Virus record (IMG/VR): IMGVR_UViG_2541047798_000001
DNA length: 9,836 bases
DNA from: a virus
Taxonomy: Duplodnaviria; Heunggongvirae; Uroviricota; Caudoviricetes
Strand: one strand, 5' to 3'
Made by a program: the position numbers and the translations under genes. The notes under the pieces are model-generated. The model searched no databases, was not told the origin of the DNA, and saw only the letters and a program-made list of their open reading frames with translations. Of this stretch, positions 6,625-7,063 are shown piece by piece; the stretch's first letter is position 1; each line of letters opens with the position of its first letter.

Positions 6625-6647
6625 AGCCGGAGCAATCCGGCTTTTTT
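6625..6647 (+). terminator. Rho-independent terminator after the replication operon
   Basis: Stem AGCCGGA / TCCGGCT with GCAA loop followed by T6. Confidence 0.7.
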
Positions 6648-6658
6648 GCGCCCAAAAA

Positions 6659-6693
6659 AAGCCCGATAAGGTCAGAGGTGGCTTATCGGGCTT
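6659..6693. terminator. Second hairpin, possibly a bidirectional terminator
   Basis: Perfect 12-bp stem AAGCCCGATAAG / CTTATCGGGCTT with 11-nt loop; A7 upstream and T4 downstream. Confidence 0.5.
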
Positions 6694-6772
6694 TTGCATA
6701 TGAGGTTTTTTGGTGCACTGACACACATGATCGGGATAATAATTTCATAATTTGCAACGCAACTCAATATCA

Positions 6773-6825
6773 TTGCACAAAATGCAATCATGATTATAAT
6801 CATAACTGGATGAACATCCAGTTAT
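6773..6825 (+). promoter_or_regulatory. Capsid-operon promoter: TTGCAC(6773-6778)-N16-TATAAT(6795-6800) embedded in three palindromes
   Basis: Perfect -10 and 4/6 -35. Palindromes: ATTGCA-caaaa-TGCAAT (6772-6788), ATGATTATAATCAT (6790-6803), ATAACTGGATG-AA-CATCCAGTTAT (6802-6825, at the predicted start region). Confidence 0.5.
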
Positions 6826-6856
6826 GATTTTTTAAGTCAAAGAGGAATTTCTTACT

Positions 6857-7063
6857 ATGGCTGAAGAGAAAAAAGGCGGTGTTTCGGTGTACATAAGCCC
6901 CGACATCGTGAAGGCGCTCAAGGAACGCCACCAGCAGAACGTAAAAGCAGGCATTGCGGCAGGACTTGATCCGCTGGCGATGGTTGAGCCGTCAACAGGC
7001 TGGCAGGTACGCGCCTATTTACGCGCGGCGCTGGGTATGAATCAGGTTCACGGGGGTGAATAA
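6857..7063 (+). CDS. Hypothetical small protein (68 aa), first gene of the capsid operon
   Basis: SD AGAGGA upstream; stop overlaps the capsid ATG (TAATG). N-terminus (GGVSVYISPDIVKALKERHQQ) is compatible with a ribbon-helix-helix fold, but this is uncertain. Confidence 0.5.
   Translation: MAEEKKGGVSVYISPDIVKALKERHQQNVKAGIAAGLDPLAMVEPSTGWQVRAYLRAALGMNQVHGGE

Follow-up and report, generated by a model that had tools for sequence, protein, structure and literature searches.

A putative LexA-repressed promoter with a conserved operator pair upstream of the capsid operon of an EcCICFT073-type phage satellite

We examined the DNA upstream of the capsid genes in IMG/VR record IMGVR_UViG_2541047798_000001, a 9,836-nucleotide stretch of Caudoviricetes DNA which was analysed at its full length and is here called the window. 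On sequence grounds, the window is an EcCICFT073-type Gram-negative phage-inducible chromosomal island (PICI), and its capsid genes form an operon resembling c1498–c1501 of Escherichia coli CFT073. Positions 6740–6856 are the control region of this operon, and 6742–6856 is a self-contained module. We consider it moderately probable that this module consists of a sigma70 promoter which is repressed by the host SOS repressor LexA, together with a second pair of operators, and the SOS signal which induces the helper prophage would probably also turn on the capsid genes of the satellite. The window has 100% identity to a chromosomal island of E. coli SCU-172, located between cspD/yljB and clpS, and its gene order is that of EcCICFT073, the model Gram-negative PICI.

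The promoter has a -10 hexamer, TATAAT (6795–6800, + strand), which matches the consensus at all 6 positions, and a -35 hexamer, TTGCAC (6773–6778, + strand), which matches at 3 of 6, with a 16 bp spacer between them. An initial annotation of this DNA had described a near-consensus sigma70 promoter with a perfect TATAAT and a good -35; this description holds for the -10 but not for the -35, and it was due to the 3/6 match that a consensus promoter scan missed the capsid-operon promoter. In some relatives the -35 is TTGCAA or TTGCGA (4/6). Close relatives were gathered via the capsid protein, giving 80 IMG/VR loci of which 44 distinct close sequences were compared, and more distant loci from Salmonella (three lineages), Pluralibacter, Edwardsiella and two metagenomic lineages were gathered via homologues of the 68-amino-acid (68-aa) protein encoded by the first gene of the operon. 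TATAAT is retained in 43 of the 44 close relatives and is also present in Salmonella and Pluralibacter, with TAAAAT in Edwardsiella and at loci L088 and L089. From the distance to the -10 only, transcription from this sigma70 promoter is predicted to start near 6807 (6806–6808, + strand), which is backed by the published expression data described below. An alternative upstream promoter (TTCATA-18-TATCAT) was dropped, its -10 not being conserved. The module has a G+C content of 30–33%, compared to 50–60% on both sides, and a similarity search of the region against phage DNA gave chance-level matches only, none of them to phage late-promoter regions.

The 5′ arm of a large perfect dyad starts inside the -10. 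This dyad is 32 bp long (6798–6829), with 15-nt arms at 6798–6812 and 6815–6829 around a 2-nt centre, and is followed by a run of six Ts. It had been described as a 24-bp perfect dyad following the -10; a long perfect dyad does exist here, its true size being 32 bp (15 + 2 + 15). Chance statistics were taken from 300 dinucleotide-preserving shuffles of the window, of which none contained perfect 15-nt arms (the largest were 13 nt), and of the three dyads in the region only this one exceeds chance.

Within the dyad lies a candidate LexA (SOS) box, AACTGGATGAACATCCAGTT (6804–6823), which begins 3 bp downstream of the -10 and spans the predicted start site. It carries the enterobacterial SOS-box signature of a 20-bp palindromic site with CTG-N10-CAG (consensus TACTGTATATATATACAGTA). 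We scored it with a symmetrised Berg–von Hippel matrix which was made for this analysis from 11 K-12 boxes (recA, lexA (two), sulA, umuD, uvrA/ssb, uvrB, recN (two), yebG and ruvA), so that the resulting heterology index (HI) values are not directly comparable with published ones. The site has an HI of 6.58, inside the range of the known K-12 boxes (2.0–8.4 in sample, 2.3–11.3 leave-one-out), while the second-best 20-mer of the window has an HI of 14.8. Only three 20-mers in 167 kb of E. coli DNA scored as well, and every one of them is an authentic box. This score is not explained by palindromy, as random AT-rich 20-bp dyads reached it in only 105 of 400,000 cases (2.6e-4). The site closely resembles the ruvAB box CGCTGGATATCTATCCAGCA, the form CTGGAT...ATCCAG being common to both, and tightly LexA-controlled genes carry boxes at this position relative to the -10 and start (PMC8072944). 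We infer from this match that the core of the large dyad (6804–6823) is a host LexA operator, to which LexA would bind.

The box is also widely conserved. Of 93 related loci from three genera, which include three Salmonella lineages, 88 retain CTG-N10-CAG, or 45 of 50 when identical sequences are counted once, the HI values being 5.5–11.3. In Pluralibacter the box is displaced 12 bp downstream as a unit, with different central six bases and the same N10 spacing. A variant with ATACAG breaks a pair of the stem and improves the LexA score (HI 5.48), and the outer arms beyond the box are imperfect or lost in Salmonella. These three features favour a DNA operator over a pure RNA hairpin.

Two further observations concern LexA-like sites. 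At two loci (L076 and L090) a 1-nt insertion or deletion inside the LexA box either widens the spacer to N11 or disrupts the right half; such changes may reflect natural loss of repression or errors in sequencing. In the spacer between int and alpA of EcCIEDL933 (L092, 41588–41718) there are two LexA-like 20-mers, TACTGGTTTTTTATACACTA (8.05) and TACTGGATATGCGAACAGAT (11.1), and the window's own region upstream of alpA has no LexA-like 20-mer better than 14.8.

Upstream of the LexA box the module carries two 17-bp dyads, which we call operators O1 and O2. O2, ATTGCACAAAATGCAAT (ATTGCA-N5-TGCAAT; 6772–6788), contains the -35 in its left half and is separated from the -10 by 6 bp; the initial annotation had recognised a dyad there. 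It has a twin, O1, ATTTCATAATTTGCAAC (6742–6758), at a start-to-start distance of 30 bp, the left half of which lay outside the interval annotated at that time and which is present in every lineage. O1 and O2 both fit the pattern RTTKCA-N5-TGMAAY. It should be noted that dyads with 6-bp arms and a 5-nt gap are not enriched in number (2 observed vs 2.8 expected from the shuffles). The arrangement O1, 13 bp, O2, 6 bp, -10 is identical in E. coli, the three Salmonella lineages, Pluralibacter and the two metagenomic lineages, and in Edwardsiella O1 lies 2 bp further upstream. Changes in the half-sites keep the symmetry across lineages: O1 reads ATTTCATATTATGAAAT, a perfect dyad, in Salmonella (L082) and ATTGCACTTTATGCAAT in Edwardsiella, where both operators have the form [A/G]TTGCA-N5-TGCAAT. 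Between the operators a TCAAT pentamer (6764–6768) holds a fixed position in 10 of 12 tabulated lineages, the exceptions being TCAGT in one Salmonella lineage (L098) and a shifted CAATC in Edwardsiella (L095). The centres of O1 and O2 are about three helical turns apart and O2 lies over the -35, an arrangement pointing to two dimers (or two dimers of dimers) which bind cooperatively and would make the -35 inaccessible.

The arms of the palindrome over the -10, in contrast to the O1 and O2 dyads, are not kept across genera. A perfect 14-bp palindrome, ATGATTATAATCAT, does surround the -10 at 6790–6803, as had been noted. Perfect palindromes of at least 14 bp were found in 156 of the 300 shuffles, with a mean of 0.78 per shuffle. 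Beyond the self-complementary TTATAA that lies inside T-TATAA-T, the palindrome adds only four pairs; its outermost pair is complementary in 29 of 44 relatives, and in Salmonella its left arm is GTGGTT, AAATCT or GTAGAT. As it is at chance level in the shuffles and not conserved, this palindrome is probably incidental and not a functional site.

We also compared nucleotide diversity between the module and its surroundings. Diversity was 0.064 for the module (6742–6856) and 0.012 for O1, which is the least variable stretch of the region, whereas the two genes downstream had 0.135 and 0.20 at their third codon positions and the adjoining upstream spacer (6701–6741) had 0.18. The module is therefore taken to be under purifying selection with an abrupt start at approximately 6742. 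The region was found in 598 of 5,426 complete E. coli genomes, about 1 in 9, and the module accompanies the capsid genes regardless of the upstream neighbour, which may be PerC, SSB or a 74-aa gene. It is also worthy of note that two O157 islands at the same roxA–phoQ site differ in their late modules. In EDL933 (L092, NZ_CP008957 1680329–1690000; OI-51) the PICI has an HK97-type capsid/protease/portal module and lacks the O1/O2/LexA module, while in the EC4115 lineage (L094, NC_011353 1535679–1546115) there is a gpE/gpD module with this promoter. The boundary of the swap lies just upstream of the promoter module.

Several candidates for the protein that binds O1 and O2 were considered. The initial annotation had proposed that the promoter is held off by one or more dimeric DNA-binding proteins until a helper-derived signal arrives, and had named the PerC-like protein, AlpA, the 68-aa protein and a helper factor. 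The operator motif was not found in the promoter region of alpA, which argues against AlpA. PerC is an unlikely binder, as the operators persist at two loci where no PerC gene precedes the operon (L086 and L089) and PerC may be separated from the operon by a further gene, as in EC4115. A helper site shared with lambda was dropped, the motif being no commoner in lambda than chance predicts and lacking from the surroundings of the late promoter. The 68-aa protein is a weak candidate: it has a predicted strand-helix-helix fold, and it could be an autoregulator because the operators are always inherited with the operon. Homology tests on this protein were all negative or sub-threshold. As O2 covers the -35, the binder would most simply be a cooperatively binding repressor.

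In the mechanism which we propose, a LexA dimer at 6804–6823 would block open-complex formation or promoter escape. DNA damage would activate RecA, leading to LexA self-cleavage and release of the capsid operon; SOS is also the signal by which lambdoid helper prophages are induced. A second regulator would probably act at O1 and O2, with O2 over the -35. The earlier idea of a promoter checked by dimeric proteins fits with the LexA-scoring dyad and the conserved operator pair, but not in respect of the palindrome over the -10; the best-supported repressor is host LexA, which was not among the regulators listed, and the signal would be SOS/RecA* instead of one derived from the helper.

Published expression data from CFT073, which has the studied region with a single base changed, bear on both parts of this mechanism. 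In RNA-seq of a shift from 23 to 37 degrees, the log2 fold changes were 2.24 for c1498, 2.05 for c1499, 1.45 for c1500 and 1.17 for c1501, all significant, and were 0.2–0.4 for c1495–c1497 and c1503 and 0.25 for sulA, none of these being significant (PMC12890032). Since this block changes alone and its neighbours do not, with the boundary of the unit lying between c1501 and c1503, the data indirectly support transcription of c1498–c1501 as a unit of its own, from this promoter as far as the terminator at 8896–8924. It should also be noted that c1498–c1501 (L106, 463–2497) alone among the island genes rise 2- to 5-fold at 37 degrees in the absence of SOS induction, a hint that temperature regulates the AT-rich promoter. 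The AT-rich module and the O1/O2 pair are candidates for a second, non-LexA input.

A number of points weigh against control by LexA as we propose it. The rise of approximately fourfold without a change in sulA implies that there is another regulator besides LexA and that the operon is not silent without SOS. The affinity of the box for LexA may be moderate, because CTG is followed by G and not T, as in the weak ruvAB box. Three loci (L088, L089 and L095) keep the operators and the -10 without a LexA box, and LexA control is therefore not essential to the module; it looks like an add-on carried by most, but not all, members of the family. The invariance of CTG and CAG does not by itself separate a DNA role from an RNA role, because both are also stem positions of the hairpin. 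In addition, a literature search returned no binding, start-site, LexA chromatin immunoprecipitation or electrophoretic mobility shift, or SOS-induction data for this module. Neither this promoter nor LexA control in Gram-negative PICIs was described in the papers which the same search retrieved. In the three of them that mention EcCICFT073 together with LexA, LexA occurs only in the title of a cited paper on SaPIs (Staphylococcus aureus pathogenicity islands; Ubeda et al. 2007, Mol Microbiol 65:41).

The large dyad can also be read as RNA. It may act mainly as a third intrinsic terminator which insulates the capsid operon from early read-through, with the -10 simply overlapping its 5′ arm and its likeness to a LexA box being secondary, although we regard this as unlikely. 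A terminator scan flags the dyad, and its RNA folds into a stable 14-bp hairpin (−17.3 kcal/mol, z = −6.9), with only four G-C pairs and with U6 directly behind it. In the alignment of the 44 sequences 96% of cells are paired, two pairs are changed on both sides and 16 G-U cells fit the + strand; the Pluralibacter hairpin abuts T6 like a textbook terminator, and in Salmonella (L082) an alternative lower stem can form. However, two strong terminators already lie 100–180 bp upstream in every lineage, and initiation at the adjacent promoter would fall within the stem, giving a transcript without significant structure (z = 0.22). The hairpin forms only in transcripts from upstream, so that insulation would be a secondary role at best. 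In the stem, CTGGA/TCCAG is conserved and does not covary, alignment pair 64–86 is unpaired in 17 of the 44 sequences, and the ATACAG variant weakens the stem yet betters the LexA match. The T-rich run is retained in lineages without the hairpin and the LexA box, and is for this reason more likely a leader feature. A second RNA-based reading is promoter-proximal antitermination of the Q or AlpA type, in which a short transcript from a constitutive promoter stops at the hairpin unless RNA polymerase has been rendered termination-resistant by a factor loaded between the -35 and -10. P. aeruginosa AlpA works in this way through a binding element between the -35 and -10 (PMC7969949), the window encodes an AlpA-family protein, and in Pluralibacter the hairpin and U6 would lie at about +9 to +35. 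As in lambda Q and P. aeruginosa AlpA systems, there is a strong -10, a conserved element at the -35/-10 spacer and a hairpin with a U run downstream. We nevertheless find this reading very improbable, because in E. coli and Salmonella the 5′ arm of the hairpin starts inside the -10, so that in most lineages the hairpin overlaps the -10 and start and is not transcribed from this promoter, leaving Pluralibacter as the only case of a leader terminator; O2 overlaps the -35 instead of sitting between the hexamers; and no similarity to phage late-promoter regions or to pause or binding elements was found. An Rfam search at a permissive threshold found nothing near any gathering score. An antiterminator/terminator arrangement with alternative pairing of three ATGATT/AATCAT copies was infeasible, the left pair having no loop.

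The remaining alternatives concern proteins other than LexA. That all of the dyads are operators for satellite or helper repressors (PerC-like, AlpA, the 68-aa protein or a helper factor), with the operon off until a helper signal arrives, seems doubtful to us. It would account for O1 and O2, which are conserved and operator-like, and AlpA is a known helper-dependent activator of this PICI family (PMC6092414). It is at odds with the large dyad scoring as a LexA box far beyond chance and with the chance-level, unconserved palindrome over the -10, as well as with the points already made against the individual proteins, including the absence of the O motif upstream of alpA, which AlpA autoregulates. 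An ordinary constitutive promoter with dyads of no regulatory function is, in our judgement, hardly credible. Chance can account for both the 14-bp palindrome and a lone 6-5-6 dyad, and the operon is expressed at 37 degrees in uninduced CFT073, but perfect 15-nt arms were absent from every shuffle, O1, O2 and the box are under strong purifying selection relative to synonymous sites, and the architecture is conserved across genera. A more elaborate form of the LexA-repressed promoter is also conceivable, though we give it little weight: the capsid operon would integrate SOS/LexA with the 68-aa protein, which would be a satellite autoregulator belonging to a new small family, on the twin operators, and the 32-bp dyad would double as an insulating RNA terminator. 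If true, this two-input module would amount to SaPI operon I control arrived at anew in Gram-negative bacteria, with a layer added.

We compared the putative LexA-repressed promoter with known systems. Like the E. coli SOS boxes of ruvAB, sulA, umuDC and uvrB, the window site is a 20-bp imperfect palindrome with CTG-N10-CAG, an HI in the functional range and an overlap with the -10/+1 region. It differs from them in lying on a phage satellite before capsid genes, inside a 32-bp perfect dyad with a T run and with two extra operators. Packaging operon I of the SaPIs is reportedly LexA-controlled. In both cases a satellite morphogenesis operon has its own promoter, apart from the helper-sensing switch, which is or would be wired to the host SOS repressor. 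The host phylum and the type of LexA box are different, and the genes are gpE/gpD/Nu3-like rather than terS/cpm, being unrelated, so that the likeness is convergent. As a purely functional analogy, the window shares three traits with SaPI operon I: the element is a satellite, its morphogenesis genes form an operon of their own, and the promoter of that operon carries a LexA box. O1 and O2 resemble lambdoid CI/Cro operators and Arc/Mnt ribbon-helix-helix operators in being 17-bp dyads with 6-bp half-sites, paired on the same helix face with one over the -35 and with a small protein encoded by the first gene. They have no sequence similarity to the lambda operators, their motif is at chance level in lambda and their spacing is 30 bp vs 23–24 bp. 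By these comparisons we provisionally class the capsid-operon promoter as a LexA-regulated satellite promoter, convergent with the SaPI case, with a conserved operator pair in addition.

The capsid operon begins with the gene for the 68-aa protein, the c1498 homologue (6857–7063; phrog_3255), which has an invariant Shine-Dalgarno sequence, AGAGGAA (6841–6847), downstream of the T6 run of the leader (6828–6833). A T-rich run is kept there in all lineages, even those without the LexA box. The next genes encode the major capsid protein of the lambda gpE family, the c1499 homologue (7063–8118; PF03864, 3.8e-49), a gpD-like head decoration protein, the c1500 homologue (8131–8466; phrog_49), and a 137-aa protein like the C-terminal (Nu3 scaffold) part of lambda-type head proteases, the c1501 homologue (8479–8892; phrog_1999 and phrog_53). 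In EcCICFT073, c1499 and c1500 are the capsid and decoration genes and are both without a known phenotype (PMC6092414). The 137-aa protein matches positions 494–567 of 583 of the head-maturation-protease family phrog_53, which is the Nu3-scaffold region of lambda gpC; because it matches only this region, the operon has a capsid, a decoration and a scaffold-like protein without a protease or portal. The terminator scan places an intrinsic terminator at 8896–8924, which closes the operon; this terminator, the four genes, the Shine-Dalgarno sequence and the T6 run are all on the + strand. Contig searches with the 68-aa and capsid proteins as queries gave nothing useful.

The early genes, all on the + strand, encode a tyrosine integrase, AlpA, an Icd-like protein, a DUF4222 protein, a DUF927 primase, SSB and a PerC-family protein; DUF4222 is the RgdR family (PMC3378721). 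Two terminators separate these from the capsid operon. An intrinsic terminator on the + strand (6625–6647; stem 6625–6642, then a T run) follows the PerC-family gene and ends the early operon, and an inverted-repeat scan found a second terminator-like hairpin at 6657–6700, with 14-nt perfect arms at 6657–6670 and 6682–6695, flanks of an A run and a T run and thus a bidirectional form. Two upstream terminator-like hairpins are also present in the Salmonella, Pluralibacter and metagenomic relatives. With the large dyad and its T run, the stretch from the PerC gene to the capsid operon holds a tandem series of three terminator-like hairpins (6625–6647, 6657–6700 and 6798–6833). Beyond the operon a lambda cosN-like sequence, GGGCGGCGACCTCGCG, occurs twice in inverted orientation, at 8938–8975 and 9465–9500, and a cosB-like TATTTATGAAAATTTTCCGG follows the first copy. 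The two copies flank approximately 490 bp of AT-rich DNA with a 114-aa open reading frame (9122–9466), and this inverted pair may be a duplicated or split cos site.

If the capsid operon answers directly to LexA, this would provide a concrete condition under which the capsid and decoration genes are made. Gram-negative PICIs would then, like SaPIs, read the SOS state of the host separately from the helper-sensing AlpA switch, and in pathogenic E. coli and Salmonella the SOS regulon would gain an operon from a mobile element. The conserved pair of operators points to a further regulator, which can now be sought.

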